Source: a virus. From it: a DNA stretch of 64,000 nt. This document shows positions 1,566 through 39,499 of the stretch, in pieces. Where the stretch lies: IMG/VR virus record IMGVR_UViG_3300033997_000077, positions 32,001-96,000 of that record. One strand, 5' to 3'. The translations under genes and the position numbers were made by a program. Every line of letters starts with the position of its first letter. Positions within the stretch are counted from its first letter, which is position 1. Below the pieces are notes generated by a model. The model was not told the origin of the DNA and searched no databases. It worked only from the letters and a program-made list of their open reading frames with translations.

Positions 1566-3875
1566 ATGCAACTGTCGATTAGCTCTATTGCCTCGACTTC
1601 TGCGCAACAAGATTTCGAGTGGTACATCTACAAGGGCAGCACCTTCACTGTCACTGGTGGTACTGCCCGAGCGCAAGTCAAAGAAGGGACGCGGGTTGGC
1701 ATCCGCCCAGTTGCGCGCTCCAAGGATTACTACATCGTAACCGAGGACGCGCCGAAGAAGCTGTTCAAGATTACCAAGCAACGCGCCACCAAGATTGCAG
1801 GCACTGGCAAACGCATCAAGCGTGTTATCCTGCAAGGTGATCAGCCCACTGCGAAAACCAAAGAGATCCTCGACGACGCTGCAACTCAGAAGTTTGACGC
1901 TGACCGCTTCAAGCCGCTGGGCACCGTTCGCAACGAAGCGTTCGGGCGTGACGGCACAGAGGCGTTCGGTGTGGACACCACCAACTACCAGTGGCGCGTT
2001 GTGCGTGACCCCGAGTACCTGATCCAAACCAACAAGCGGCCTATCAAGCTGCGCCGTGGCGACAAGATCGGTATGCGCTTTGGTCGTCCGTCACAGGGCG
2101 GTAAGATCGTTGACCTCAACGGTATGTATGAGACGGTAACCACCGCCGAGTACGACCGCATTGCATCCGACCTTCCGGTAATGCCGAAAGGGCGCTGGCC
2201 GCAGACCGTTGTTACTCCCGAGATGATCAAAGAGTACCAACTCAACAAAGAGCGTCAGCGTGTTCGCGAACGTAACGAGCGCGAGAAGGAAGAGCGTGCC
2301 CAACAGGCTGCTGTCCGCAACGCAGAGCGCGAAGCCAAGCAGCAGAAGGAAGAGGAAGAACGTCAACGTCGCGCGCTGGAAGCCAAAGAGCACGGCGAGA
2401 TCGTCAAGCAGATCGACGAAGCGGCCAAGGCCGAAACCGCTAAGGCCGAGCAGCTGAAGGAAGAGCGCCGCGCCAAAGCCGGACTGCAAGACGAAGATCT
2501 CCGCAACGCCAAAGCCAGTAAGATGCAGCCGTTGGAGCACGCACTGGAAGAGGAAGACGTCGATGACGACGAGGACTTCGGTGAAGATCTGGAAGGTGAT
2601 GTCACTCGCCAGTCCGACGACAAGAAGGCCGAGCGCGTCAAAGAGAACGACGTTGAGAAAGCCAAGCTCGACGCACGCAAGCGCGCTGAAGACATCAGCC
2701 TCCGTATGGCCGAAGCACTCAAGGCCGTGATCGAAGCTGCTGGCGATGACAAGGAAGCTGAAGCAGAAGCTCGCGCCGAGTACAAGGCAGACGCCAAGAC
2801 TCTGAAAGCCGCCGACACCACCGACGAGGACAAGGATGCCATCGTTGCTAAGTGGGAAGCAAAAGCCAACGGCGGCGAAGAGCAGGAAGAGGAAGAGCAG
2901 GAAGAAGACCCTGCCGCCGAGGAAGACCCTGCCGCCGAGGAAGACCCTGCTGCTGAGGAAGAGGAACAGGAAGAAGAGGACGCCGATCCTGCCGCCGAGG
3001 AAGAGGAACAGGAAGAAGACCCTGCTGCCACCGACGAATCTCCGGACGATGAAGAGTTCGAAGAAGAGGATGACGGATCGGAAGAAGGCGACGAAGACTT
3101 CGAAGAGGACGACGCCGACGCCGCTGCTGGTGATGAATCTCCGGACGATGAAGAGTTCGAAGAGGAAGAAGAGGATCCGGCTGCTGGTGATGAATCTCCG
3201 GACGATGAAGAGTTCGAAGAGGAAGAGCAGGACGACGAAGACTTCGAACCTACTGCTGACGACGACGCCGATCTCGATGACATGGTAGAGCCCGAGATTG
3301 ACGAAGACTCCGCAGGGATCGCCGACACATTGCGCGACAATCCAGACGCGCAAGACTTCGATGACGATGACGCGGTTTCCGATCTGGCGGACGTAGACGA
3401 GGAAGACATCGGCAAAGAGCCCGAGGAAGAGAAGACCCCTCCGAAGGACGCGCCGAAGAAACCGAAGGCTAAGGAAGAAGCGCCGCCTGAAGAGTCGGAA
3501 GATGACCCGCTCGAATTCGAAGACGAAGAGGATCCCGAAGCTGAAGCAGAAGTGCCGAAGCCTGCTGGCATCAAGGATACGCAGACCGCTGAAGAAGGCG
3601 ACCTGCTGACGTTCCATGATGACACCAAGCTCAAGCGCCGCTTCCTGTTGGTATCCGCCGAGCCTATGGAGCAGAACGACCGCATCATTGTCTACAAGCT
3701 GTGGGACTTTGATAGCAAGCCGGAAACCTACCGCACTGTGCGCGTAGCTACTGACCGTGGGCAGAGCATCCTGAAGTACGCTGACAAGGTTGGTCAGGTT
3801 ACTCCGAAGGAATTCAACGAAGCGCAGGACGCCGTTGATAACGCGGAGCATGACAAATCTGCAATCAAGAGTTGA
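1566..3875 (+). CDS. Acidic repeat-rich protein with N-terminal SxS leader; candidate internal head protein
   Basis: 769 aa; MQLSISSIASTSA leader, two small beta domains, a coiled coil, then a very long D/E tract. Confidence 0.6.
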   Translation: MQLSISSIASTSAQQDFEWYIYKGSTFTVTGGTARAQVKEGTRVGIRPVARSKDYYIVTEDAPKKLFKITKQRATKIAGTGKRIKRVILQGDQPTAKTKEILDDAATQKFDADRFKPLGTVRNEAFGRDGTEAFGVDTTNYQWRVVRDPEYLIQTNKRPIKLRRGDKIGMRFGRPSQGGKIVDLNGMYETVTTAEYDRIASDLPVMPKGRWPQTVVTPEMIKEYQLNKERQRVRERNEREKEERAQQAAVRNAEREAKQQKEEEERQRRALEAKEHGEIVKQIDEAAKAETAKAEQLKEERRAKAGLQDEDLRNAKASKMQPLEHALEEEDVDDDEDFGEDLEGDVTRQSDDKKAERVKENDVEKAKLDARKRAEDISLRMAEALKAVIEAAGDDKEAEAEARAEYKADAKTLKAADTTDEDKDAIVAKWEAKANGGEEQEEEEQEEDPAAEEDPAAEEDPAAEEEEQEEEDADPAAEEEEQEEDPAATDESPDDEEFEEEDDGSEEGDEDFEEDDADAAAGDESPDDEEFEEEEEDPAAGDESPDDEEFEEEEQDDEDFEPTADDDADLDDMVEPEIDEDSAGIADTLRDNPDAQDFDDDDAVSDLADVDEEDIGKEPEEEKTPPKDAPKKPKAKEEAPPEESEDDPLEFEDEEDPEAEAEVPKPAGIKDTQTAEEGDLLTFHDDTKLKRRFLLVSAEPMEQNDRIIVYKLWDFDSKPETYRTVRVATDRGQSILKYADKVGQVTPKEFNEAQDAVDNAEHDKSAIKS
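2877..3250 (+). repeat. Coding tandem repeats (18-nt EEDPAA x3; ~57-nt AAGDESPDDEEFEEEE x2-3)
   Basis: GAGGAAGACCCTGCCGCC units at ~2901-2954; GAATCTCCGGACGATGAAGAGTTCGAAGA occurs three times between ~3036 and 3220. Confidence 0.85.
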
Positions 3876-9069: not shown

Positions 9070-9861
9070 ATGAGCGAATTTGATTCAGTGAAGGGGGCGT
9101 TCCGCTCCCTGTCCTTTGACGTCGGTGTCACTATCCCGCGTGGCCTTGACTTGCACAAGCTGCAAGCCTCCCGCCAGTCAAAGTCGATTTCAGTTCGCGG
9201 CGAAAGCATGGGCGTTCGCGAATCCGTTAACCTCGACGTGAACACTTGGCTGCCCGCCGCTGCCGAACACTACAACATTAGCCGCGACATTCGTGACTAC
9301 GTGTTGCATCCGACAGTCGTCAACGTGTCTGGCATTCCCAACACCAACGCCGACGGGTTCGGCCTGAAAGATTGGCTGACCTTCCGCCCCGAGTTCGGCA
9401 TGCTGTCCTACAAGACATTCAAAGGCAAGCCCACTTTCATCGAGCACAACAACCAGAACCACCGCGTCGCCCGAGGTGCAATCTTCGATGCGCAAATGTC
9501 GAAGTTGCAGGGCTTCCATAAAGCGCATGGCCGTCTGATTCTGCTGCTCGCCTACGACCGCAACCTTGAGCCCGAGCTGTGCCGCGACATCTTGTCTGGC
9601 GTGCACAACACCTACTCCAAGGGCACTTGGTACAAGGCGTACACCTGCTCGATTTGCGGCGAGACCTTCACTGGTAGCAGCAAGCGCTTGTGCGGTCACG
9701 TTGGCAATCGCGTAATCCGTATGCCGGACGGTCGCCTTGCTTATCGCCAGTGCCACATTCTCGAAGGCTTCGAAACCAGTGCGGTTCGCAATCCGGCCTT
9801 CGTGTGCGCATCCCCCGATCCCAAATCCGTAATGGATCCTCGCAATAAGGAACGTTGGTAA
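9070..9861 (+). CDS. Candidate prohead (capsid maturation) protease with Zn-ribbon insert
   Basis: NTNADGF, TFKGKPTFIEH (His), GAIFDA, YSKG (Ser), CSICG..C.H, ETSAVRNPA match the HK97-type protease layout. It lies upstream of the scaffold and capsid genes. Confidence 0.7.
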   Translation: MSEFDSVKGAFRSLSFDVGVTIPRGLDLHKLQASRQSKSISVRGESMGVRESVNLDVNTWLPAAAEHYNISRDIRDYVLHPTVVNVSGIPNTNADGFGLKDWLTFRPEFGMLSYKTFKGKPTFIEHNNQNHRVARGAIFDAQMSKLQGFHKAHGRLILLLAYDRNLEPELCRDILSGVHNTYSKGTWYKAYTCSICGETFTGSSKRLCGHVGNRVIRMPDGRLAYRQCHILEGFETSAVRNPAFVCASPDPKSVMDPRNKERW

Positions 9862-14045: not shown

Positions 14046-16340
14046 ATGTCTAAGCTCTACAAAGGCATAGTCGTGGCAGCTAACAGCAAGGCGGGAGTTG
14101 TAGCAGCGTTTTCCGACGTTGCTACTGGGAAGAATGCGCGTTTCATGGCATCGGAATCCGGTGCCGTGTTCGCAACTAACGGCATTGCCTATGACCCGTG
14201 CGGTTACGGTACTGTACGTGATTTTGATGGGGTGGAGGATATGGAATTCGCCTCTGCTAGTGCGGAAGCGGAAGCTAACCTGACTGTGTGTCTGGACGGC
14301 TGCCAAAACTTCATCCTGTCTGAATCACAGTTGCAACGTTGCCCTTCCTGCTCCGCAGCCCTCACCGCAAGCGAGGAAGATATTCACGACCTCGTTTTCG
14401 GCTCTGAGTCTGACGCCCTGCTGCAAGGTAGCGACCCTCTGTTCTGCGGAACTGAAGAGCAAGCCGCTGCTTTTGCCCGTGCACTGCGCACAGGCATCGT
14501 GCCATCGTTGTCGGGGGAACTCGCAACGTTGAACTATGACCCGTACAGCGGTCAAGAGTCGGTACGAAGCTGCTCCAACGTTGCTGAATTCAGCGGCGTG
14601 TTTCACAAATTCAAGTGCGCTGCTGGTTGCAGCCACCCCGTAACGTTGTCCACTTCGGCGGACATTGTTTTCTGCGCTCACTGTAACGCTCCCCTTGAGG
14701 AACCCGAGAACATGATCAAGAAAATTGGAAGAATTGATCAGCGTTTGCACGTCTTCGCTCCGTCAGTGTCCGGTGCCCTTAACGGGCTGCGTGATCTGCT
14801 GATCAACGGCGCGGCTGGCGCAAACCACTTCGATCACAAGAACCCCGACGAGAACTTCATCTCCAACTCCGCCTGTGCGTTCAACCCGTACACTGGTAAC
14901 AACGTTGCCAGCCGCGTAGTTGATTCTCTGTCCGGTACTGGTGCTGAAATCGCGCACGACGCGCTGAACATCCACCTGTTCAAGTGCCACGATGGTTGCG
15001 GTTTCATGGCGTGCAGCTCTGCTGATGCCAACTTCTGCTCCGAGTGTGACGCTCCGCTGGTAGAGCCGAGCGAAGAAGATCTGGCTGACCTGCCTGCTGC
15101 CGACACCGTTGGCGACGACTCTTCCCTCGAAGATCTGGAATCCGATCTGGCCGAGCTGGACGCTGACGAAGAAGACCTGCTGTCTGCTTCCGGCGAGGAA
15201 GAAGAGTTCGAAGACGAGGAAGAAGAAGACCTCGAATTCGACGACGGCGACGAAGGTGACTTCGACGAATCCAGCCTCTCCGGTGACGACTACGACGACG
15301 AAGATGAAGGCGACGATATGCCTGACTTCGACGACGAAGACGACGAAGAGGAGGACGAAGAGGACGAAGAGTCCGACTTCGAAGCCGAAGGCGACTTCTC
15401 TCTGGAATCCACTTCCGGCGACGAAGGTGGCGAAGATGGCGGTGAAGATACCGACACTATGCTGACCGACGACGAGCTGGCCGAGCTGGATTTTGAAGGC
15501 GAAGACGATGACATGGAATCCGAGAGTTCGGTAATTTCTATCAGCGCGGCGGAAGCCTTGGTAGCTGATGCGGAATTCAACCTCGACTCCTTGTCCTGTG
15601 TGTTCGACGGTAAGAGCCGTTACCATGCGATCTACGACAACCTGCCGCTGGGTTCCCTGAACCTGACTGCTCTGTCTGCCGCATTGGGTGACGAAGACAA
15701 GGCCAAAGTTCTGTTCCGCAACGGTACTCTGCCTTCAATCCTCAGCGCCTCCGCACGCGAGAACGGTCTGGAGCAGGCTCTGACCGACTTGGGCTTTACT
15801 CCGGTTGAGTTCAACGTTAGCGTCAGCAACGTTCTGCAACAACGTGCAAGCAAGTCCGCTGACGAGCGTGCCGACCGTCTGCAAAACGAAATCAACACCA
15901 TCGTTGCAGATACCACTGAGCGCTACCAAGCCAGCGTCAGCACCGCGATGATCGGTCTGACTCGCGGCTTCTGGAAGCAGGATGACAACGCTGTTGCCTC
16001 CGCTCTGGTGAACAAGATGGTTGCAAGCGGCATGAGCCTGAGCAGTGCCCGTGAGATGGTAACCTCGGCGTTCGCCGAGCAGGGTGCCGAACTGATGGCA
16101 ACCGTATTCTCCCGCGCGCAGTCTCTGAGTGCGATGTCTGTCGAAGGCTACAACGAAGTAAGCCGTGCCATCGAAGACATCAACGTTGCCTCTGTTTCTT
16201 CCGGTGCTGTAGAAATCGGCAAAGTTGTGCGCAAGCCAGCTGACGCCACCAACACCGAAGTCAAGATTGCCTCCAACTCTTCTGACGCTCTCGCATGGGA
16301 ACAGAAGATGGCGGCCCTCGGTCTGAATAACCGTCGCTGA
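14046..16340 (+). CDS. Prohead scaffold/core protein
   Basis: Sits between the protease and capsid genes. Three Cys-rich repeats, a long acidic tract, a helical C-terminus and about 25 SxS tripeptides. Confidence 0.65.
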   Translation: MSKLYKGIVVAANSKAGVVAAFSDVATGKNARFMASESGAVFATNGIAYDPCGYGTVRDFDGVEDMEFASASAEAEANLTVCLDGCQNFILSESQLQRCPSCSAALTASEEDIHDLVFGSESDALLQGSDPLFCGTEEQAAAFARALRTGIVPSLSGELATLNYDPYSGQESVRSCSNVAEFSGVFHKFKCAAGCSHPVTLSTSADIVFCAHCNAPLEEPENMIKKIGRIDQRLHVFAPSVSGALNGLRDLLINGAAGANHFDHKNPDENFISNSACAFNPYTGNNVASRVVDSLSGTGAEIAHDALNIHLFKCHDGCGFMACSSADANFCSECDAPLVEPSEEDLADLPAADTVGDDSSLEDLESDLAELDADEEDLLSASGEEEEFEDEEEEDLEFDDGDEGDFDESSLSGDDYDDEDEGDDMPDFDDEDDEEEDEEDEESDFEAEGDFSLESTSGDEGGEDGGEDTDTMLTDDELAELDFEGEDDDMESESSVISISAAEALVADAEFNLDSLSCVFDGKSRYHAIYDNLPLGSLNLTALSAALGDEDKAKVLFRNGTLPSILSASARENGLEQALTDLGFTPVEFNVSVSNVLQQRASKSADERADRLQNEINTIVADTTERYQASVSTAMIGLTRGFWKQDDNAVASALVNKMVASGMSLSSAREMVTSAFAEQGAELMATVFSRAQSLSAMSVEGYNEVSRAIEDINVASVSSGAVEIGKVVRKPADATNTEVKIASNSSDALAWEQKMAALGLNNRR

Positions 16341-17197: not shown

Positions 17198-18301
17198 ATG
17201 ACTCAATATGCAAAAGCCAAGGGCGCTGTTGTTGCCGTTACTCGCGATGGCCGTCCCGTTACCGACCTGCCGATGTTCTCCGCTTCCAGCGGCGAGCTGA
17301 ATGCTTCCAACAAGAAAGACGCTCTGGCTCTGGGCCAGCGTTACATGGACATGATGAAGAACGGCGAAGTCGTTCTGGTTCAAGAAGATCAAGTCGGCTC
17401 CATGCAGGCTTCTATGTCCAGCGCTGACCGCATCCGTCTGGGCAACGAAGTGTTCATGGAAGCTGCCAACGATCCGTCCAAGTGGGCGTCTCTGGGTTCC
17501 AGCATCGTTGCACGCGTTGAAGACCGTGCCGAGCGTTCCGGTCTGATGCGTAACCTGCTGCAAGGTAGCACCTTGCGCCAAGGCGAAATCGCCCGTGTCG
17601 AACTGAAACAGCACGTGTGCCACGCCGTGGTCGCAACTGGCCCGTCCGATCTGGGTTACCAAATCCTGCGCGGTAAAGTCTTCAACCCGCAAGAGTTCGA
17701 AGTCAAATCCGCTGTACGTGTTCCGGTAATCGACATGCACCAGATCGCTGGTGACCTGATGGGCCGTGCCGAGCGTGACGCTCACCAGTCCGTAGTGGTC
17801 AAAGAAGACCGTCTGTTCATGGACGCTGTGTATCAGGCAGTTGGTCGTGGCAACCCGATCACCTACCTGCACGACAAACTCCTGCCGGGTCACTTGGCCG
17901 CCATGCGCGACCAGATTGACAGCTGGAACATTCCGGTCGCGGGCACCGTTCTGTCTTCCGACTTCTGGACTGACATGATCGGCAGCTCCGTGTGGATGGA
18001 AGCTCTGGAACCTGTTACCCGTTACGAACTGCTGAGCACTGGCCGTCTGGCTACTCTGCTGGGTATGGATCTGATCACCGACGGTTTCCGTGATCCGACC
18101 CAACGTGTTCTGGAACGTGGCACCCTGTTTACCTTCGCCACTCCGGAATACCTCGGCGCGTACACCACTCGCGGCGGCGCAACCAGCGAAGCGACCACTG
18201 GTGCCAACGAAGGCAACACCGACAAGGGCTGGCTGATCAGCGAGATCCTGTCTATGGTTGTTGCTAACACCCAAGGTCTGGCTCTGGCTAAACGTCAATG
18301 A
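17198..18301 (+). CDS. Major capsid protein (HK97 fold)
   Basis: 367 aa from ATG 17198 (AGGA RBS), with highly expressed codon bias. Contains R.G.MR.LL, VKEDR.F, G.L..LLG..LITD and GWLISE; position in the head module fits. Confidence 0.8.
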   Translation: MTQYAKAKGAVVAVTRDGRPVTDLPMFSASSGELNASNKKDALALGQRYMDMMKNGEVVLVQEDQVGSMQASMSSADRIRLGNEVFMEAANDPSKWASLGSSIVARVEDRAERSGLMRNLLQGSTLRQGEIARVELKQHVCHAVVATGPSDLGYQILRGKVFNPQEFEVKSAVRVPVIDMHQIAGDLMGRAERDAHQSVVVKEDRLFMDAVYQAVGRGNPITYLHDKLLPGHLAAMRDQIDSWNIPVAGTVLSSDFWTDMIGSSVWMEALEPVTRYELLSTGRLATLLGMDLITDGFRDPTQRVLERGTLFTFATPEYLGAYTTRGGATSEATTGANEGNTDKGWLISEILSMVVANTQGLALAKRQ

Positions 18302-21669: not shown

Positions 21670-21671
21670 CC

Positions 21672-22409
21672 ATGAAGCTGAACATCAAGACCGTATCCGT
21701 TTCCGCAGCCGCTGACTTTCTGGATGCCGACAAGCACCTCAATCTGAAAAAGGTCGAAGCCGCTGGCAAGAAGATCGTTGCTGCCGCTGAGCGTTTCGCC
21801 AAGGCTCAAGCCAAGGGTGACGCAGTAGCCGCCAAGGTTATCGCTCGCATCGGATCTAAAACTCCGAAGCAGATCGAGAAAGCGATGAAGCCTGTTGGCT
21901 ACTACGTGATGAACAAGAAAGTGCACTCCAAGGTAGAGAACTACTCTGCCGTTAAGGCCAAGAAAGGCGATGCCGCCTATCTGCGCAAGCGCGCTTTCCG
22001 TGTTATGAGCCGCAAGACTCCGACCGATGCCTACGCCGTCCTCTCTCCGATCTACGACGTTCGCATTCTTGGCAAAGAAGCTGCTGCCATCCAGCGTGAC
22101 CTGATCAAGGCCATCGAAACCCATATGGGCGGACTGGACAAGACCAAGGGCCGCGCCAGCGAAATCACTCAGGCGACCCAAGCAGCCAACACCGCTGACT
22201 TCCGCAAGTCCGCTGATTTGGTGATTGGTACTCTGATCGGTGCTGCTGGCTCCAAGATCAAACAAGCCAACGTGTTCGAGTCTACTCCGGCGCGTGGCGT
22301 TCCCGCCGTTTACATCAACGTGCCCGGCGCTGGTGTTCTGGTTCTGCGTCATGCAACCAAAGCACAGCTGGCAGCTGCCAAGAAAGCCGCCGCAACTCCG
22401 GCCCAGTAA
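21672..22409 (+). CDS. Lys/Ala-rich basic protein with SVS leader; candidate internal head protein
   Basis: MKLNIKTVSVSAA leader; K/A-rich; highly expressed codon usage. Confidence 0.6.
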   Translation: MKLNIKTVSVSAAADFLDADKHLNLKKVEAAGKKIVAAAERFAKAQAKGDAVAAKVIARIGSKTPKQIEKAMKPVGYYVMNKKVHSKVENYSAVKAKKGDAAYLRKRAFRVMSRKTPTDAYAVLSPIYDVRILGKEAAAIQRDLIKAIETHMGGLDKTKGRASEITQATQAANTADFRKSADLVIGTLIGAAGSKIKQANVFESTPARGVPAVYINVPGAGVLVLRHATKAQLAAAKKAAATPAQ

Positions 22410-22981: not shown

Positions 22982-23647
22982 ATGCTCTTAAATTTGAGCC
23001 TATCCGCCGCCAAGCCGCAGTACACTGAATTCGACTGGTTCAAGTTTACTGGGGTGCGTGGTGTATATCTCGAAAACAAGGAATACGAAGTCCAAATCGA
23101 CGCGGGCGAACGCTTCGGTGTTTTCATCGCGCAGCGTGGCGTTATCTACGTTGTGCACGAAGACCTGCCGACTGAGCTGTTCAAGTGCGATGCGAAAACC
23201 GCACGCTCTCTAATGAGTCGAGCAACGTACTACAAGGGACGCGTTAAGGGCAAAGCTGTAAACAACAGCAGACTTGTCAAAGGCGCGAACGTTCCACGTG
23301 ACCCGACTGCGCAGCCGCCAGCAGACCCAGCACCGGAAACCAAAACCAAAGCTGTGGGCAACGCCAAAGACATCTTGACCGCAATCCGCAAGCAATCGTT
23401 CGCCAAGCCGCGCAGTATCACCTACATGCGCAGTGCCGATATGGGCGAGGGCAAAGTGTTCTACTACGACGCGACTTCTTCCTACGTTGAATCCAAGTTG
23501 AAGGCCGCACAGTGGGAGAAGCACGCGGAGAAGATGCTGCTTGCCGCAATGGCGGGCACCAGTCACGAAGTCGGGGCAGTCGTGCAGCAACCAACATCAA
23601 AGACGCAGCCCGAGCGGGCGGTGTTGATGGTTAAGGTGGACACATGA
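22982..23647 (+). CDS. Protein with SLS leader and domain paralogous to the N-terminus of 1566..3875
   Basis: MLLNLSLSAA; FDWFKFTG...GERFGV...YVVHEDLP.ELFK. Confidence 0.65.
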   Translation: MLLNLSLSAAKPQYTEFDWFKFTGVRGVYLENKEYEVQIDAGERFGVFIAQRGVIYVVHEDLPTELFKCDAKTARSLMSRATYYKGRVKGKAVNNSRLVKGANVPRDPTAQPPADPAPETKTKAVGNAKDILTAIRKQSFAKPRSITYMRSADMGEGKVFYYDATSSYVESKLKAAQWEKHAEKMLLAAMAGTSHEVGAVVQQPTSKTQPERAVLMVKVDT

Positions 23648-31754: not shown

Positions 31755-32540
31755 ATGAAACAACTTTTGTGTGGTAAGATTTATATGCCCGTGGCTCTGC
31801 TGCACCGCGAGCGCGGTTTGGTAGTTGAGATATTCGCCATCGACTATTCCAGCGAGCGGGTTTCGGCATCCGACGCCGAGGTAACTCTCCGCCGTTACCT
31901 TCGCGACCGTGTGTTTATGTCGGCAGATGACACGTCGCTGTACGGGCCCGACGTTGAGTACGTGGACAACTACTACGAAGTCACTGGGGAAGGTTGGTCG
32001 TTCAGCATTCACGCCGACCGCACGCACATCGTTCCCCTGCTGCCGAACACTACGCCGCCCAAGTGTTTCCGCTGTGCGTTCTCCGATGACCTGCAACGTC
32101 GCATGATCTGTGGCGACGACTCGCACATCACAATCATGGCAACCAATATTGTCCGCAATCCGTCGCAGGATCCGTTCGGTCGCTTGGGTCTGCATCGCGT
32201 ACAGACCGAGCCGCTGCAAGCAATCACTTTCGGCGAAGACAGTGTGTCCTGCTTCTCTGCGTTCCGCATGGGATACAGCGACCAGCCAGTCGGCCACACG
32301 CTGCGCAAACCAACGCTGTTTATCCATGACAGTACGGGCGAGGCGCTGATAAACGTGAAGCTGGCAGGCTACCAGTTCGACAAGTTGGTCGTGGGCCCGC
32401 ATCCGCTGCGTATGATGATGTTTGGCGACTACGAATTCCAGCGCGCGGCCCACGCTTTTGGGGAGCCGAGCCACGAATTCACCATGTTCACCGACTGCAA
32501 GCACTACTGCCAACTGATTTCCGATTCTCCCGCACGCTAA
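31755..32540 (+). CDS. Hypothetical protein
   Basis: GAGG RBS, 261 aa, co-oriented in the operon. Confidence 0.6.
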   Translation: MKQLLCGKIYMPVALLHRERGLVVEIFAIDYSSERVSASDAEVTLRRYLRDRVFMSADDTSLYGPDVEYVDNYYEVTGEGWSFSIHADRTHIVPLLPNTTPPKCFRCAFSDDLQRRMICGDDSHITIMATNIVRNPSQDPFGRLGLHRVQTEPLQAITFGEDSVSCFSAFRMGYSDQPVGHTLRKPTLFIHDSTGEALINVKLAGYQFDKLVVGPHPLRMMMFGDYEFQRAAHAFGEPSHEFTMFTDCKHYCQLISDSPAR

Positions 32541-32543
32541 TTT
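32538..32543 (+). promoter_or_regulatory. TAATTT candidate late promoter
   Basis: GCTAATTTAGC overlaps the upstream stop, just before the GGAGG RBS of the SxS-leader gene cluster. Confidence 0.5.
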
Positions 32544-32560
32544 AGCGTAGGAGGAACACC

Positions 32561-32953
32561 ATGAACATTGAACTCAACATGTGCGTTGCTAACGCTTCGC
32601 TGTCCGCAGACCCAGTTGTTACGTTCTTAGAGCGTATGCGCAAGGCTGCGTACTCTACTGCCCCCAATCCGATTCGCGCAGCGCTGAAGAAAGTGAACCC
32701 CGACCACGTGGAAGATCTCAACTTCATTGTGCTGGGCGCGCCGTCGCTCACTACCAAAGACCCCATTGGGTTTGCGGTGGAAGACCCAGTGGACAATACT
32801 GTGGTCACGTCGTACCTCATTGATCGTGTTGCGCATGGTTCCCCTCTCGGGCGCGTGACTTCCGTGCGTGCTGACGACGCTAAGCTGGCAAACGTGCCAC
32901 TCAGTTATCAACACAGCGTTGTCCTAATGCGCATGCCGATGGACGCCCTGTAA
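32561..32953 (+). CDS. Small protein with SLS leader
   Basis: MNIELNMCVANASLSA; strong RBS. Confidence 0.65.
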   Translation: MNIELNMCVANASLSADPVVTFLERMRKAAYSTAPNPIRAALKKVNPDHVEDLNFIVLGAPSLTTKDPIGFAVEDPVDNTVVTSYLIDRVAHGSPLGRVTSVRADDAKLANVPLSYQHSVVLMRMPMDAL

Positions 32954-32963
32954 GGAGACACCA

Positions 32964-33518
32964 ATGAACATCAATCTTGGACTCAACATGGTTTCGGAAT
33001 CTACCCGACGCCGTGGCCGCCAGAATGACCCTGACCGCACGACCCCCGCTGGCTACGCTGCTGTGTATCCAACTCCGGAGACCGTGCGGTTTGTCATGTC
33101 TGAGTTGGAGAAGATTGGCCTGAAGACCGACTTCGATCCCAAAGACTTGCACGTTACGATGATGTACGACGTCGAGAACCCCGTGCTGTTCCATCCGGCA
33201 GCCCCGATTCAGATCGAAGCGACCGTGAATAGCGGCGCACTGTTCGGGCCGGAAGAGAACACGTTGGTTCTGAAGCTGGATAGCCAAGGTCTGATTGCTC
33301 GTCACAAGTACCTGCGTCAGATGGGCTACCGTCACAGCTACCCTGAGTATGAGCCGCACATGACAATCAAAGTTCCTGCCGATCAGCTGGACTTGGATTT
33401 GCTCAATCAGGGTTTGGCCGCTGGCGCGTTCAGTGGTGTGCGCCTCGTCTTCGGTGGCGAGACTTGGGAACCGATCCGCGAGGATGCTTATGCCAAGTAC
33501 GAGGACAAGGACGAATAA
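32964..33518 (+). CDS. 2H phosphoesterase, Acb1 (T4 gp57B)-like anti-CBASS candidate, with SES leader
   Basis: Two HxT motifs (LHVTMMY, PHMTI) and LVLKLDS..L..RH.Y....G..H.Y..Y.PH, matching the T4 Acb1 pattern as recalled. Confidence 0.8.
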   Translation: MNINLGLNMVSESTRRRGRQNDPDRTTPAGYAAVYPTPETVRFVMSELEKIGLKTDFDPKDLHVTMMYDVENPVLFHPAAPIQIEATVNSGALFGPEENTLVLKLDSQGLIARHKYLRQMGYRHSYPEYEPHMTIKVPADQLDLDLLNQGLAAGAFSGVRLVFGGETWEPIREDAYAKYEDKDE

Positions 33519-33525
33519 GGGCGAC

Positions 33526-34032
33526 ATGACTCCAAGTCAGCGGGCGTTTGGAAACAAGCTGCCCGCATCGTTCGTCTCTATCAGTCGAAATCAAGTTGCC
33601 CCGCTATTGCGACAGGCACTATCTCCATACTTCACGAAGCTCATGTATAGCCTGCACTTTGAGGTGGGGGTCGAGAGGGGCGGGCATTTACGTGCTGACG
33701 TCGTATGTGTGAAGATGGATCGCTCTGTCACGATAGTTGAGGTGAAAAGTGGATGGCAGGATTTTGCGGCAGACCATAAATGGCAGCGCTATTTACCGTT
33801 CTGCAACCAGTTCTACTTTGCAGTGAGCGACGCACTCTGGGACACTCACGCCGACCGCTTGAAAGAAGCGTTGGCTGGGTCGGGTGCTGGCATCATCGTG
33901 TGTAGAACTGGTGGCCCTGTGCGCAAAGTCCTGCCTGCGGCTAAAAGGAAAATGGCACCTGCTCGACGCATTTGGCTATTCACAAAGCTCGCGTGGATTT
34001 CTGGGCTGTCTCGGGCACGGAGAGTTAACTAA
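33526..34032 (+). CDS. MmcB-like PD-(D/E)XK nuclease
   Basis: EV......RADV....IVEVKS...DF..D.KW..YLPFC..FYFAV. Confidence 0.8.
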   Translation: MTPSQRAFGNKLPASFVSISRNQVAPLLRQALSPYFTKLMYSLHFEVGVERGGHLRADVVCVKMDRSVTIVEVKSGWQDFAADHKWQRYLPFCNQFYFAVSDALWDTHADRLKEALAGSGAGIIVCRTGGPVRKVLPAAKRKMAPARRIWLFTKLAWISGLSRARRVN

Positions 34033-34739
34033 TGAACATTGCATTAGGATTGAATCAGGTTAAGTCGGAAAGCAGCGTGGAAGGCGAGCGCGCCTTTGCC
34101 GACATCTTCGGTGACATCTTCGGTCAGATGTTCACGGACAGTATGCGCAAGTACAAGAAGGCCGACACTGAGTGCATGCTCGGCCCGCTGGAATCTGCAT
34201 CCAACGCACAGCAAGCGTCGCGCAGCAGCCAGCACACCAAGTTCGGCCCCATCACGATCACTACTCGCCTCGAAGGCGCTGACATGTTCTCCATCGTGTG
34301 GAGCAACCGGATGAATAACTCGTCTATCGGGATCCACAAGTTCTCCAAAGGGCGCTACGTTGTGGAACTCGGTCTGGCGAGCGGTGCACGTGTTGAAGCC
34401 CTGAACTTCAAGGCCATTGAGCACGCCACGGCGTTCGCTCTGCTCAACACTGACGTGACTCGGGTACAAGATGATCACGCACTGGCCGCGCGCAAGCACT
34501 TCCTGCAATTCCTCGTCGCGCGAGAGAAGCGGGCACAAGGCGCAGTGAAGTTCACGAAGACCGCGTGGCAAGTTAGCCGACTGCGCGGGCAGGATGTGAA
34601 GTTCAGCGAAGGCACCATCGACCACATTGGCCGCTTGATGTTCCTGCTCCCCAGCGAGAAAGCACTGATCACAACCTCCGATGGTAGCGGCAAAGTCGTT
34701 AAGCACACCGTACCGTTCGACAATATTTGGATCCAGTAG
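34032..34739 (+). CDS. Protein with SES leader
   Basis: MNIALGLNQVKSESS; GGAG RBS. Confidence 0.65.
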   Translation: MNIALGLNQVKSESSVEGERAFADIFGDIFGQMFTDSMRKYKKADTECMLGPLESASNAQQASRSSQHTKFGPITITTRLEGADMFSIVWSNRMNNSSIGIHKFSKGRYVVELGLASGARVEALNFKAIEHATAFALLNTDVTRVQDDHALAARKHFLQFLVAREKRAQGAVKFTKTAWQVSRLRGQDVKFSEGTIDHIGRLMFLLPSEKALITTSDGSGKVVKHTVPFDNIWIQ

Positions 34740-34748
34740 GGAGACCTA

Positions 34749-36881
34749 ATGCGAAAGCCTAAGTACAGGATTCTCCTTGGGGACAACCGCAAGACGCTTC
34801 CGACGATTCCGGATAAATCCATCTCCTGTTGTGTAACGAGCCCGCCCTATTATGGGCTGCGCGATTACGGCGGCATGGAAGAGCAGATCGGTTTGGAAGC
34901 GACGCCGGAAGAATACGTCGCGGAGCTGGTGAAAGTGTTCGAAGAAGTGAAGCGTGTTCTGCGGGATGACGGTACGCTGTGGTTGAACATTGGGGACACC
35001 CATTACAACTATCGTCCAACATCTGGCGACGACACGCGTCCGCATTCATTCGGCGGCGCTCGCACTGACGCAATGAAGCGGGGGCTGCCCAAGGACAACT
35101 CAAAGACGCACCGTGGCCGGAAGCTGACGACCGTTAAGCAGAAGGATCTGATCGGCATTCCTTGGATGCTGGCCTTTGCGTTGCGTGCTGCTGGTTGGTA
35201 TCTGCGGCAGGACATCATTTGGAGCAAGCCGAACCCGATGCCGGAAAGCGTCGGGGATCGTTGCACCAAAGCGCACGAATATATTTTCCTGCTCACTAAG
35301 AAGCCCCGCTATTACTTCGATAAGGAAGCCGCGAAAGAAGCCGCCGTAACTGGTGGGCTGCGCAAGCGGCGCAGTGTATGGCACGTCCCCACAGTCCCAT
35401 ACAAGGGAGCGCACTTTGCAACGTTCCCTCCGGAACTTATCGAGCCGTGTATTCGAATCGGCGCGCCGAAAGGCTCACGCGTATTAGATCCGTTCGGCGG
35501 ATCCGGCACTACGGCTGGGGTGGCGCTCGCTTTAGGTTGCGATGCGACACTCTGCGAATTGGATCCAAACTCCGCAAAACTCGTCAAAGACCGAGTGAAG
35601 TCAATCGGTCGGGCATACAAACTGAAACTCAATGAGGAACAAGACATGGAAATCAAACTGTCTGTATCGGCATTCAAGCCGAAAGTTCAAACAGGTGACC
35701 CGAAGCGCGATCTGGCGACGTCCCCGTCGGGGCGTCAAAGTGTGATGTCAGCCACGGAAATCACGAACATCGCACAGAGCATAGTAGACAAGATGCGCAA
35801 GCGCAACCTTCCCATCAGGTCGGAACACTCCCTGCGCAAGGCTGCTACGGAGGCGGTGAACAGTTGGGTAAACCGCTCCACTGCGTCGAAGCTCACCAAG
35901 GAAGTTAAGCAGAAGGCGGCAACCAAACTGGTCAACCGTGTGGTCGCCCTGTTCAACAAAAGCGAGCCGAAGGGAGTCTCTGCACCTAACGGCACCGATG
36001 CCAAGGCCAAGAAATTCTCCAAGGCCGAGATCGAAAAGATTGCAGGGCGTCTCGTCCACTACGTGAAGTTCTCCGGCGCGGTGGACAGCAAGAACAAGGA
36101 TAAATCCATCGACAACATTGTGAAAGGTTGGGCAGACATGCACAGCGTGCAGTATCCGAACCAATCACGCATGCTCAACAAAGACGCGGTTAAGAAGCAG
36201 CTGGTCGAGCTAGTCAACAAGAAGGCAGGCGGCTCCAAGAAAGCTCCGGCGTCCGCACCATCTGACAAGGTTGTGCCGAATACCGTGGCCGCCACCAAGG
36301 AAGAGAGACTGAAAGCTCAGATTCTGGCTGGCACCAAACTCCGCAACCAGTTCCAAGGCATGCTGGCAAAAGCCCCGTCCATGACTGCCAAGTCAATCGA
36401 GAACATCCGCAAGCATTGCGTTGCATACAACAAGGTGATCACCTCTGTTCAACGCGGCAACGAAGCGCTGGCCGAGACCACCAAGATCGAAGGGCTGCGC
36501 GGCATCGAATCCGTGAAGAACTACGTCAACAACGTTCTGGGCCTGACCTACGGCTACGTTGAAATCGCCAAGCAGTTGGGTGTTGCTCAGACTGCGCTGA
36601 AGGACAAGATCAATGCAGGCATCACCGTGGAGACTTCCAACGTTGAGCTGAAGCGCACCGCCAAGGCCAATGCGCAGCGTGCTCTGGGTTCCGTAGCCAA
36701 AGCACTCAGCCGCCGCAACTGCCAGCTGCCGACTTCCTTCCAGCGTGAAGTTGAGAAGGTGTTCGTGGACGCTGCGATGTCCGGTGACATCAAGAAGGCC
36801 AAGGAGCTGCTGCGTGATCGCATCGACATCTTTGTTGCCGACGTGTTCCGCAACAAGACCAAACTGTACTCAGCCAAGTAA
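34749..36881 (+). CDS. Beta-class amino (m4C/m6A) DNA methyltransferase fused in frame to a 411-aa basic protein
   Basis: TSPPY (motif IV) precedes VLDPFGGSGTT (motif I); IIW.KP and HFATFP present. No stop after the MTase domain. Confidence 0.88.
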   Translation: MRKPKYRILLGDNRKTLPTIPDKSISCCVTSPPYYGLRDYGGMEEQIGLEATPEEYVAELVKVFEEVKRVLRDDGTLWLNIGDTHYNYRPTSGDDTRPHSFGGARTDAMKRGLPKDNSKTHRGRKLTTVKQKDLIGIPWMLAFALRAAGWYLRQDIIWSKPNPMPESVGDRCTKAHEYIFLLTKKPRYYFDKEAAKEAAVTGGLRKRRSVWHVPTVPYKGAHFATFPPELIEPCIRIGAPKGSRVLDPFGGSGTTAGVALALGCDATLCELDPNSAKLVKDRVKSIGRAYKLKLNEEQDMEIKLSVSAFKPKVQTGDPKRDLATSPSGRQSVMSATEITNIAQSIVDKMRKRNLPIRSEHSLRKAATEAVNSWVNRSTASKLTKEVKQKAATKLVNRVVALFNKSEPKGVSAPNGTDAKAKKFSKAEIEKIAGRLVHYVKFSGAVDSKNKDKSIDNIVKGWADMHSVQYPNQSRMLNKDAVKKQLVELVNKKAGGSKKAPASAPSDKVVPNTVAATKEERLKAQILAGTKLRNQFQGMLAKAPSMTAKSIENIRKHCVAYNKVITSVQRGNEALAETTKIEGLRGIESVKNYVNNVLGLTYGYVEIAKQLGVAQTALKDKINAGITVETSNVELKRTAKANAQRALGSVAKALSRRNCQLPTSFQREVEKVFVDAAMSGDIKKAKELLRDRIDIFVADVFRNKTKLYSAK
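35646..36881 (+). CDS. Nested in-frame gene: Lys-rich protein with SVS leader
   Basis: GAGGA RBS at 35634-35638, then ATG 35646 giving MEIKLSVSAF, the same leader type as neighbouring genes. Confidence 0.6.
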   Translation: MEIKLSVSAFKPKVQTGDPKRDLATSPSGRQSVMSATEITNIAQSIVDKMRKRNLPIRSEHSLRKAATEAVNSWVNRSTASKLTKEVKQKAATKLVNRVVALFNKSEPKGVSAPNGTDAKAKKFSKAEIEKIAGRLVHYVKFSGAVDSKNKDKSIDNIVKGWADMHSVQYPNQSRMLNKDAVKKQLVELVNKKAGGSKKAPASAPSDKVVPNTVAATKEERLKAQILAGTKLRNQFQGMLAKAPSMTAKSIENIRKHCVAYNKVITSVQRGNEALAETTKIEGLRGIESVKNYVNNVLGLTYGYVEIAKQLGVAQTALKDKINAGITVETSNVELKRTAKANAQRALGSVAKALSRRNCQLPTSFQREVEKVFVDAAMSGDIKKAKELLRDRIDIFVADVFRNKTKLYSAK

Positions 36882-36890
36882 AGGTGAAGC

Positions 36891-37553
36891 ATGGATAGTT
36901 ACATCGTACTTGAAGGGCCGGATTTCGCTGGCAAGTCTTCTCTGATTGCTTTCATTGCGGAGCAACTTCAAGCGCGCGGTGTGGAAGTGGAGGTCGTCCG
37001 CGAGCCGGGCGGCACCCCTTTCGCTGAAGCGATGCGCGAGAGCGTGCTGTGCGGAGAGTACAACCCGAGCCAAGAAGCCGAACTGTTTGCCATGCTGGCA
37101 GCACGTGCCGATCTGTTCCACAAGCGGATTCTTCCGGCGTTGGAGCAAGGCAAAGTTGTACTGGGTGACCGTGGTTCTCCCAGCACTGACATCTACCAGT
37201 GTGGTAACGATGACGTACTGCGTGACATGTTCCTGCGCTACAAGAAGATAGCCGCACCGATCACTCCGCTGTACGTGTTCCTCGAACTCGACTACGAGAC
37301 CTACCTCGAACGCCGCAACGCGCGTGCTGCTGAAGGTCAGGCGCTCGACGCCATCGAGAAACGTTACACCGAGCGCTCAAAGTACGAAGCCCTGATGTCC
37401 AGTTACCGTCAGGCTGCTGCCCGTGAGCAGAACGTACTGATCGTCAACGTCGTTGGCAAGACGATTGAGCAGATCTACAATGAACTCTGGCCGTACCTGC
37501 GCTGTGAAGCGCAGTTGTCTGTAGGAGGCCCCCGTGAATGTGACCCAGCGTAA
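36891..37553 (+). CDS. tmk: Thymidylate kinase
   Basis: YIVLEGPDFAGKSS P-loop, REPGGT, ELF...AAR, VVLGDR. Confidence 0.93.
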   Translation: MDSYIVLEGPDFAGKSSLIAFIAEQLQARGVEVEVVREPGGTPFAEAMRESVLCGEYNPSQEAELFAMLAARADLFHKRILPALEQGKVVLGDRGSPSTDIYQCGNDDVLRDMFLRYKKIAAPITPLYVFLELDYETYLERRNARAAEGQALDAIEKRYTERSKYEALMSSYRQAAAREQNVLIVNVVGKTIEQIYNELWPYLRCEAQLSVGGPRECDPA

Positions 37554-39459
37554 TTTTGGCGTCCGTATGCAAAGCCTCAGTCAAGTGTTACCGATGACTT
37601 CGGAGTCCGCCGTGACTCCGATTCGTCTGAAGTACATGGGCAGTGCGCCCGTGGAACTCGACGGTAACGACGACTGGGATGCGTCGATGGACAAAGGCGA
37701 AGCCTACGAGCTTGTGCCTGCCGCAAACGCACGCGGCAAAGTCGCCATTGTGTTGAAGATTGAACGCAAACGTGAATTCTTCTACGTCAGCGACCGTGCG
37801 AAGATCATGCAGATTCTGGCGGGCACCAAGTTCCCCAAGAAGATGGATCTCGACAACCTGCTGTACGCAACAGGCAAGGGCGTGAACCGTGCGAACTTTG
37901 TTGAGGTCGGCACCATTGCTGAAGACATCAACGATATGTCTACGCACAAGTGGTTCCTCGCCGCTGGGATCAAGATGTATATGGACAAGAACAAGCGCCA
38001 TTACTTCTGTTTCGATCTCAAGAACCCGATGGAAACCTACCTGCCGAAGACCAAGGTAGCCCGCCTGAAAGCGTCGTTCAAGCCGCAGCCCGCTAAGACC
38101 ATCGTGCAGCAAATCGCGGACAAGGTTGAGGAAAAGGTTGCTGGCACGAAGACCGTGCACCAGTACGACGGCGGCCCCATCGATCCGAAGTACGTAGGCG
38201 ACCCGAACTTCAGCGTCCTGATCGGCGGCAACGTCTACAAGGGCACCGAACTCAGCATCGACAACAAGGGCAACGTGTACCATCCGGTTGCGTCCGATGA
38301 CCCCATCGAGAATGCGTTGCGTAACCACAAGCGTCCTGCCTACAAGAACATGACGACCGCGCAGATCGGTGCTGCGTTGCTGGCTATGCCGCGCGAGCAG
38401 CTGTATGTTGAAGCCGCACGTGCTGCCCACGCCGAAGACCTGCGCGCACTGCTGGCAGCTGGCCGTACACTCTCGCAGTGGAAAGACCTCGGCTACACCA
38501 GCAAGCAGGGAGCTGAAAAGCAACTTGCAGCAATCGAGAGCGCCAATGTACGCGAGGCTGTTCCGGTAACGAGCCCGACTGTTGGCCCACGCAACACCAC
38601 TATCCCACAGCCGAAGACCATTGCGGATTCCGATTACGGCTTCCTCGCTGTAACACCGCACGAACTTCACGCCAAAGATAGCTGGGTGGTGTACGCTCCG
38701 ACACGCGCGGCCCTTACTCGCCAACTCGACATCCTGCACTCTGCTGCTGGTGATTCGATGGCGAAGGCCGGAAAGGTCGAACTCTACAAGATCGTGCGTC
38801 AGTCGCCGCTTGTCCAGCAGATCGCCAAGCGCGCCGTCGCAATGTCTACTGCGGAAATCAAATCGAAGGCAACGTTCGTGCGCATGGTTTCCTACGTCGC
38901 GCCCATCGCCGGAGACGAGGTTCAGCATGAGCGTCCGTGGACTGACATCGACCCCGACGACATCAACGTCAGTTGGAGCGACTACGATCCTGCGGAAACC
39001 CGACTGGCGATCACCAAGCTGTTCAACGAGGGCTTCTTCAGTGCCACGTTGAAGCCGCGCCCGACTACCAAGGGTTTGGTGTTCGACATCGTTGGTGGCC
39101 GCGCTGGTCGTGATGAAGTCTACGGTGCAGTGCGCCGCGTGTACCAGTGGCTGCACAACATTGGAATCAACAACGTCAAGGTTGCCGCCAAGTGGGCACC
39201 GACCAAAGCGCTGATTGACTTCAAGTTCCCTGCACTGTCCGCCGACGAGAAAGAGAGTATCCGACTGCTGCGCGAGAAGCCGCCAGTTATCGGGGCACCG
39301 CTCTACACCATCGAGGCGCAGAAGCACCGCACGTTCCAGATCTACGCTGCCGACAACAACTCCGGTAAGGTGTTCATGTATCCTGTGCGGAATACTCAGC
39401 CGCTCACGAACGAGCCGACGCCTGTGCTGTACTGCAAAGTTCAACGCATTGCAGAATAA
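37534..39459 (+). CDS. 641-aa protein with SLS/SES leader; candidate internal head protein
   Basis: GTG after AGGAGG (alternative ATG 37567); MQSLSQVLPMTSESA. Confidence 0.6.
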   Translation: MNVTQRNFGVRMQSLSQVLPMTSESAVTPIRLKYMGSAPVELDGNDDWDASMDKGEAYELVPAANARGKVAIVLKIERKREFFYVSDRAKIMQILAGTKFPKKMDLDNLLYATGKGVNRANFVEVGTIAEDINDMSTHKWFLAAGIKMYMDKNKRHYFCFDLKNPMETYLPKTKVARLKASFKPQPAKTIVQQIADKVEEKVAGTKTVHQYDGGPIDPKYVGDPNFSVLIGGNVYKGTELSIDNKGNVYHPVASDDPIENALRNHKRPAYKNMTTAQIGAALLAMPREQLYVEAARAAHAEDLRALLAAGRTLSQWKDLGYTSKQGAEKQLAAIESANVREAVPVTSPTVGPRNTTIPQPKTIADSDYGFLAVTPHELHAKDSWVVYAPTRAALTRQLDILHSAAGDSMAKAGKVELYKIVRQSPLVQQIAKRAVAMSTAEIKSKATFVRMVSYVAPIAGDEVQHERPWTDIDPDDINVSWSDYDPAETRLAITKLFNEGFFSATLKPRPTTKGLVFDIVGGRAGRDEVYGAVRRVYQWLHNIGINNVKVAAKWAPTKALIDFKFPALSADEKESIRLLREKPPVIGAPLYTIEAQKHRTFQIYAADNNSGKVFMYPVRNTQPLTNEPTPVLYCKVQRIAE

Positions 39460-39499
39460 GAAAAGGGGAGACACCGCAAAGTGTCTCCCCTTTCTTTTT
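39458..39499. terminator. Bidirectional intrinsic terminator
   Basis: AAGAAAAGGGGAGACAC-CGCAAA-GTGTCTCCCCTTTCTTTT between convergent genes. Confidence 0.9.

Follow-up and report, generated by a model that had tools for sequence, protein, structure and literature searches.

Acb1 is known as an enzyme made by the phage after its entry, where it counters CBASS, an antiphage signaling system based on cyclic oligonucleotides. Described members of the family, such as T4 gp57B and the Acb1 of phage FBB1 (PDB 7T26/7T27), have a catalytic HxT/HxT tetrad (Hobbs 2022), and the two catalytic histidines of the T4 enzyme, H44 and H113, are 69 residues apart. Acb1 enzymes are characterized by a compact 2H fold having a U-shaped pocket and a C-terminal lid, and they cleave 3'3'-cyclic GMP-AMP (cGAMP), cUA, cAAA and cAAG without metal, whereas cA4 is not cleaved. 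Here we analyzed a 64,000-nucleotide stretch of viral DNA (the window), which represents positions 32,001-96,000 of IMGVR_UViG_3300033997_000077, a viral contig of 129,992 bp in IMG/VR. An open reading frame (ORF) in the window, judged by its sequence, encodes an Acb1-family 2H phosphodiesterase with an intact HxT...HxT tetrad. The protein has the Pfam family, the tetrad and the 69-residue spacing (H63 to H132) in common with the Acb1 of T4 and FBB1. It differs from them by a 30-residue N-terminal addition, which contains a leader ending in Ser-x-Ser, and by its location in a late-looking unit behind the baseplate genes. An initial annotation of the window had suggested that this Acb1 may be packaged in the virion and that such a delivery mode had not been described for Acb1. 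In agreement with the latter claim, no tagged or head-fused Acb1 was found in the literature searched, a partial collection without supplements, and the main text of Hobbs (2022) contains none of the words virion, portal or fused.

In phage T4, the internal proteins Ip1-3 are non-essential, carry an N-terminal signal that directs their packaging, are injected and block restriction enzymes as an anti-defense measure (PMC12373910). The arrangement that we propose would be T4-style internal-protein delivery applied to Acb1. As in T4 Ip1-3 and Alt, a short N-terminal leader is common to otherwise unrelated proteins of the window phage (12 of 120 genes, with differing domains), and as in T4 capsid targeting this leader ends in a motif that recurs in head proteins and at which a protease would cut. 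The two systems are set side by side by description; the leader may work like that of the T4 internal proteins, but the tagged proteins are not regarded as members of that group. The motif of T4 gp21 is Leu/Ile-x-Glu, whereas that of the window phage is Ser-x-Ser, with serine instead of glutamate. The leader family of the window phage is also far larger, and the cargo discussed here is an immune-signal nuclease and not a restriction inhibitor.

Iyer et al. predicted that injected polyvalent proteins, which are encoded by phages and by conjugative elements, carry nucleotide-signal-degrading enzymes (PMC7824862). The tagged proteins of the window phage have the same domain stock, namely ART-PolyVal, NUDIX and KMPT-N, and the same predicted injection may apply to them. 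However, they are separate small proteins, each with its own leader, and Acb1 is a single-domain protein of 184 amino acids and not the large multidomain chain by which polyvalent proteins are recognized. For other types of anti-CBASS protein, injection or carriage in the virion has already been published. A 2026 review states that Tad1, which acts as a sponge of both CBASS and Thoeris signals, is injected by phiKZ (PMC13282480). In a preprint, CBASS is reported to be inhibited by gp15, an ejectosome protein of ICP3/T7, while cGAMP levels are not lowered; inhibition of the effector CapV was suggested as the mechanism. Like these two, a packaged Acb1 would be a virion-borne counter-defense against cyclic-oligonucleotide immunity; unlike it, neither Tad1 nor gp15 degrades the signal, and in these sources neither is reported with a cleavable leader. 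The portal protein gp3 of Pam3 (8HDS) and the portal and head-protease fusions P0010-P0015 from other phages contain this enzyme domain as part of a capsid-internal protein. In these cases the enzyme is fused covalently and its copy number is fixed, whereas the Acb1 of the window would be a free cargo with a removable tag.

An Acb1-family protein with an N-terminal leader

The product of ORF 32964-33518 begins with MNINLGLNMVSESTRRRG (longer N-terminal reading, MNINLGLNMVSESTRRRGRQNDPDRTTPAGYAAVYP...) and is acidic, with an isoelectric point (pI) of 5.1. The Acb1 family PF23474 matched it with an E-value of 1.3e-16 and 61 bits (cut-off 27), residues 31-174 corresponding to positions 4-140 of the 144 profile positions, while other 2H families were below their cut-offs (2_5_RNA_ligase2, 22 bits against 27; LigT_PEase, 15 bits against 23.3). 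PHROGs assigned it to phrog_755, labelled 'RNA ligase' (1.7e-26). As a single sequence the protein matched the solved Acb1 7t26 (E-value 2e-7), with LHVTMMY aligned to LHTTIVY and PHMTIKV to PHITLSY, and H63, T65 and H132 were invariant in all 17 aligned sequences. A profile of 17 sequences matched the solved Acb1 entries 9q2g (2.9e-14) and 7t26 (1.5e-11) in PDB, and the significant PDB matches of the ORF were only Acb1 entries and the tail of the Pam3 portal. The Pfam score, the PDB matches, the invariant HxT residues and the matching spacing together uphold the Acb1 enzyme reading at the sequence level. The Acb1-like identity with two HxT motifs given in the initial annotation is supported by these sequence matches. 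The ~28-residue extension that it had placed before the Acb1 core is likewise present, but measured 30 residues: the PF23474 match begins at residue 31, and therefore the extension consists of a 13-residue leader and a 17-residue linker.

The leader was kept in eight of eight near-length homologues from a large protein collection (47-96% identity). Across the nine aligned proteins the residue between the invariant S11 and S13 was E, L or Q. Distant Acb1 homologues from nine viral contigs were 143-156 amino acids long, or 165 if started from an upstream GTG in contig L015, and their starts lay close, by a few residues, to the conserved G-Y at the beginning of the Acb1 core. A tree of 20 Acb1 sequences allowed a single origin of the tagged clade, with weak support (64/98). 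A wrong start codon was ruled out by the AAGGAG at the first ATG and by residues 1-13, which were conserved as protein in 9/9. A Sec, Tat or lipoprotein signal was also rejected: the leader, of 13 residues, lacks a hydrophobic core, and TRRRG is followed by a polar stretch.

In two related contigs the identity of Acb1 to the window copy was 97% (L010) and 59% (L011). The complete relative behind L010 (229,746 bp, CheckV 100%) encodes the tagged copy as its only Acb1. Among seven cultured relatives, a short Ser-x-Ser leader appears to be present on the Acb1 of two, as judged from their N-termini. The annotated Acb1 of pEa_SNUABM_5, gp246 (L032:374-871), starts with MMKVTLPISNS followed by SAQ..., and in Yoloswag gp235 (L002:4013-4501) an MKVSLS leader would result from an in-frame ATG that lies upstream of the annotated start by six codons. 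The Acb1 of the other five (Alexandra, pEa_SNUABM_35, _2, _3 and JA29) was leaderless.

Ser-x-Ser in tagged proteins and head proteins

The Acb1 leader is one of about 19 Ser-x-Ser-ending N-terminal tags in this half-genome (completeness of the source contig 49% according to CheckV). Genes were called with our own simple caller, which gave 120 genes on the contig, and all denominators of 120 refer to that list. The strict leader pattern, M-x-[ILVM]-x-[ILVMFA]-[SGNT]-[LIVMST]-[SNT], was found at the start of the 12 genes against 0.15 expected from its rate inside proteins, and S-x-S within residues 5-16 in 22 genes against 3.9 expected (two of the 22 look like chance); these counts illustrate rather than test the leader family, because both patterns were written after the data were seen. 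Typical leaders were MQIQLSLS, MEIRLSLS, MINISTS, MLLNLSLS and MKVELGLSES, each followed by A, and MNIALGLNQVKSES, followed by S. Leaders with the same amino acids use different synonymous codons, therefore the peptide and not the DNA is kept. Other genes of the cultured relatives carry the leaders MHVLISLS, MEIYVSLS, MQIVFSLS and MLFFVSVS. The domains on the tagged proteins of the window phage were unrelated and included ART-PolyVal (1.7e-25; a second, weak one was under the cut-off), NUDIX (6.6e-17) and KMPT-N; the ART and NUDIX proteins were 147-301 amino acids long.

Upstream of the window the contig contains a run of ten Ser-x-Ser-tagged genes, including L021:3069-3785, L021:5182-5625 and L021:6656-7561. 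The ART-PolyVal ADP-ribosyltransferase, the second weak ART and the NUDIX hydrolase belong to this run, which by its gene content reads like an injected-effector set.

The motif was also found in head proteins. In the head maturation protease H126, D163 and S183 were invariant in 34 sequences, and its own N-terminus displayed S-x-S-F at the aligned site in 24 of the 34, with ten different residues at x; S-x-S-[FLI] was present in 25/34, one of these at another place. The acidic protein encoded at 14046-16340 contained 14 sites (hydrophobic-S-x-S-small/polar) against 1.2 expected from the proteome rate, and shuffles of its own sequence gave a mean of 1.9 sites, none of 5000 reaching 14. Such a distribution of sites is the pattern of a putative scaffold chopped up during maturation, and the product, in which a strongly acidic composition and an abundance of Ser-x-Ser coincide with the absence of a Pfam match, looks like a scaffold or core protein. 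The label 'ATPase' given to it in related records and in phrog_20988 is therefore probably wrong. In an alignment of eight major capsid proteins, S-x-S was present at site 1 in six and at site 2 in five, PaBG and Lu11 showing Ser/Ala variants. Cleavage after site 2 would shorten the chain by 74 of its 367 residues (20%), which fits the case of PaBG, whose capsid protein loses ~20% of its mass on maturation (PaBG paper). Exactly those proteins that in other phages are processed by such a protease are marked by a single short motif, at which the protease may cut. A complex prediction of the head protease with residues 1-45 of Acb1 scored 0.01 (mark 0.32), which counts neither for nor against this. 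Data from N-terminal sequencing of RSL1 were sought in the literature and nothing relevant was found.

Residues ~182-227 of the head protease contain near-invariant Cys193, Cys196, Cys208 and His210 directly after the conserved serine. Weak C2H2 zinc-finger matches were located in this region, and a metal-binding insert is possible in this protease family.

Independently of the leader, Acb1 was found joined to head proteins elsewhere. A search with the Acb1 profile detected seven longer Acb1-containing proteins, and Pfam and PHROG scans identified a head-assembly partner in each of the seven: a portal in four, a head protease in two and, by a weak match, a minor head protein in one. Three of the portals belonged to PF06381 and carried a C-terminal Acb1, and the fourth was a Mu-type portal (PF06074) with Acb1. 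The two proteases, S78 and DUF2213/phrog_2229, had Acb1 at the N-terminus, and the seventh protein, of 843 amino acids, had only the weak minor-head-protein match. The last ~110 positions of the portal family phrog_146 also match the Acb1 domain. Residues 483-595 of the Pam3 portal (PDB 8hds chain A) matched the Acb1 profile (E-value 9.7e-5) and contain both H-x-T/S motifs (LHVTIAY and SHISL); the word phosphoesterase is not used in the main text of the Pam3 paper. Acb1 is thus linked to the inside of the capsid by at least three separate routes, a putative leader tag, portal fusion and head-protease fusion, and three unrelated ties point to a general selective pressure.

Proposed packaging and delivery of the tagged Acb1

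Packaging, trimming and injection of the tagged Acb1 is the best-supported reading of these results, and we regard it as moderately probable. The Acb1 gene would be transcribed late, from a 7-kb unit starting at a TAATTTA motif that is common to the sheath and scaffold genes. The leader tag would bring Acb1 into the assembling prohead, where the head protease may cut at a putative position in Ser-x-Ser and leave a free enzyme of ~171 amino acids inside the capsid. At infection Acb1 would exit with the DNA and could hydrolyze CBASS-type cyclic di- and trinucleotides before any phage gene expression. The idea of packaging gains strong indirect support from the Ser-x-Ser shared with head proteins, the fusion of leader and Acb1 kept down to 47% identity, the ART-PolyVal and NUDIX cargo, and the portal and protease fusions elsewhere. 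Late expression of the unit is plausible because TAATTTA is shared with the sheath and scaffold genes, a terminator closes the unit and the gene order is conserved.

Several observations weigh against this reading. The T4 internal proteins are basic, whereas the tagged Acb1 is acidic, and its leader is a longer variant (...GLNMVSES) compared with the commonest form (...LSLS). The tagged proteins do not avoid the motif in their bodies, where seven strict sites were counted in 5,857 residues against 20 in 29,029 elsewhere. The head protease was named by PHROG only, without a Pfam hit or a PDB sequence match. The five leaderless Acb1 genes of the cultured relatives adjoin genes for sigma factor, SSB and RecA, and the leader alone is no proof of late expression, because leader-bearing genes also sit among such genes. 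Since the triggering of CBASS often falls in an advanced stage of infection, it is not evident what pre-delivery would gain.

The Ser-x-Ser leader may instead be a tag for another process, such as regulated proteolysis, localization in the infected cell or a common chaperone, and Acb1 would then act only when newly made. The leader genes of the cultured relatives, which occur in structural modules but also among genes for replication and sigma factors, are consistent with this, as is the motif not being depleted in tagged proteins. Such a tag would hardly account, however, for the motif at conserved capsid sites, at the N-terminus of the protease and 14 times in the scaffold-like protein, or for the fusion of Acb1 to portals and head proteases elsewhere. 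In addition, the tagged ART-PolyVal and NUDIX domains are known from injected polyvalent proteins (PMC7824862), and we therefore consider this explanation unlikely. Loading and trimming might also take place with no active delivery, Acb1 staying in the capsid, being degraded with the scaffold or serving late in the producing cell, where it could for example keep cyclic-nucleotide signals down while structural proteins accumulate. The gene lies in a late-looking unit, late-made Acb1 would be present in the cell anyway since the complete relative has no other Acb1, and a portal-fused Acb1 would remain attached unless cut off. These points are outweighed in our view, and retention seems very unlikely, as ejection together with the DNA is described for the closest analogues, Alt and the internal proteins of T4 (PMC12373910), and the single S-x-S in 9/9 tagged proteins means that the Acb1 core would survive trimming whole.

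Acb1 could also be delivered and act on a target other than the CBASS signal, for instance on RNA 2',3'-cyclic phosphate ends or, together with the co-tagged ART and NUDIX proteins, on a cyclic phosphate derived from NAD or ADP-ribose. The protein is a member of the 2H superfamily with weak matches to 2_5_RNA_ligase2 and LigT, its identity to assayed Acb1 proteins is low, and databases label the family 'RNA ligase' or 'RNA 2',3'-cyclic phosphodiesterase'; the 2H enzymes of jumbo phages were read as 2',3'-cyclic phosphate specialists by Iyer 2021 (PMC7824862). On the other hand, the Acb1 model, at 61 bits, outscored the remaining 2H models (22 and 15 bits) by a wide margin, and the PDB matches confined to Acb1 entries and the Pam3 portal tail also argue for the Acb1 substrate range, making another target quite improbable.

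If packaging and injection of the tagged Acb1 are correct, counter-defense against CBASS, and perhaps against type III CRISPR systems using cyclic triadenylate (cA3), would start before phage transcription. This would change how the timing of immune signaling and evasion is modelled. More tentatively, capsid-borne Acb1 may be a widespread strategy of several origins, realized by a cleavable Ser-x-Ser leader in the jumbo clade, by fusion to the portal C-terminus in Pam3-like phages and by N-terminal fusion to head proteases in others. In that case many phages would neutralize cyclic-oligonucleotide immunity from the very start of infection by means of an enzyme made beforehand, and the anti-CBASS nuclease would be a part of the virion besides being a product of early genes. 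With the Ser-x-Ser code, the proteins that are probably injected could also be listed for a whole jumbo-phage clade by a simple criterion. The proposal is testable, as two cultured phages appear to carry a tagged Acb1 and Pam3, whose virion structure is solved, carries the portal-fused form.

Gene cluster and genome setting

The features of the window are listed in Table 1. The motif TAATTTA occurred six times in the window against 1.35 expected, and none of 100 shuffles reached six. The contig contained nine copies, none within a called gene, and seven of the nine lay 10-53 nt before a gene start on the same strand. It precedes the scaffold-like gene, the tail sheath gene and gene 32561, and at the last position it was kept in L010 and L011. 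The initial annotation had placed Acb1 in a cluster of leader genes behind a TAATTT motif; three nearby leader genes and the enrichment of the motif agree with this, but the motif lies one gene upstream and not directly before Acb1. A sigma-70 promoter scan gave three sites against 5.9 expected, none of them near the Acb1 gene.

Table 1. Position and basis of the features in the window, numbered from its first nucleotide.
Feature	Coordinates	Strand	Basis
Leader-bearing protein (MQLSISSIASTS) with KMPT-N domain	1566..3875	+	PF20294, 32.9 bits against cut-off 28.9
Head maturation protease, own N-terminus S-L-S then F	9070..9861	+	phrog_18299, E 1.2e-87
Acidic scaffold-like protein, Ser-x-Ser-rich	14046..16340	+	14 sites; between protease and capsid gene, as in JA11
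Major capsid protein, S-x-S at residues 28-30 and 72-74	17198..18301	+	Alignment of eight capsid proteins
Leader-bearing protein (MLLNLSLS), tail module	22982..23647	+	JA11 counterpart starts MLFFVSVS
TAATTTA, late-promoter-like motif	32538..32544	+	23 nt before gene 32561, first of tagged cluster
Leader-bearing 130-aa gene (MNIELNMCVANASLS)	32561..32953	+	Orthologues precede Acb1 in L010, L011
AAGGAG ribosome-binding site of Acb1 gene	32952..32957	+	Read from sequence, 6 nt before ATG
Whole ORF, leader, linker and Acb1 core, 184 aa	32964..33518	+	ORF list, Pfam
13-residue leader MNINLGLNMVSES, Ser-x-Ser end	32964..33002	+	S11, S13 invariant 9/9; sole S-x-S per protein 9/9
17-residue basic linker TRRRGRQNDPDRTTPAG, pI 11.8	33003..33053	+	TRRRG kept in 8/9 aligned proteins
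Acb1 core, residues 31-184	33054..33518	+	PF23474 residues 31-174; PDB 7t26 E 2e-7
First catalytic HxT motif, H63-V-T65	33150..33158	+	Invariant in 17/17 sequences; aligned with LHTTIVY in 7t26
Second catalytic HxT motif, H132-M-T134	33357..33365	+	H132 invariant, then x-T/S; aligned with PHITLSY in 7t26
MmcB-like nuclease gene in the Acb1 unit, without clear N-terminal leader	33526..34032	+	PF06319, E 5.4e-15
Leader-bearing 235-aa gene (MNIALGLNQVKSES)	34032..34739	+	ORF list, leader scan
Large gene, leader MQSLSQVLPMTSES if started at ATG 37567	37534..39459	+	Leader kept in L010, L011
Strong terminator-like hairpin, 13 pairs, closing the Acb1 unit	39462..39493	+	Hairpin scan

The gene order around Acb1 was kept in L010 and L011, with the baseplate genes followed by a tagged small gene, the tagged Acb1, the MmcB-like gene, a tagged gene, a thymidylate kinase gene and a tagged large gene. 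Gene 32561 gave no lead in Pfam, PHROG, NCBIfam or Atlas, and Protein Atlas look-ups for the two tagged neighbors (32561 and 34032) returned no usable hit. The MmcB-like nuclease displays F-V-S-I-S at residues 16-20, perhaps a displaced Ser-x-Ser site. The C-terminus of the DNA methyltransferase encoded at 34749-36881 is extended by ~400 Lys/Ala-rich residues, which gave no family match. The 97%-identical relative has a tagged 407-aa gene (MEIQLSVS, L010:11797-13020) in the slot of the methyltransferase.

The source contig belongs to a jumbo myovirus with a G+C content of 56%. A near-identity DNA search against phage records gave no match to the window. Its distant kin are jumbo phages of Erwinia, Dickeya and Pseudomonas (Alexandra, Yoloswag, JA11 and PaBG), to which the tail sheath was ~45% and the capsid protein 38-49% identical. 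The order of the head module was the same as in JA11: NAD ligase, head protease, the acidic 'ATPase'-labelled protein, virion protein, major head protein, sheath and tube. A second sheath-like gene was located at L022:551-2209 (contig 20551-22209); judged from the N-terminus alone (MSNVPHSSAGVY), it resembles the sheath at 19957 (MAFNTQHTSAGVY). This is consistent with the PaBG paper, which gives two sheath proteins for the PaBG group.

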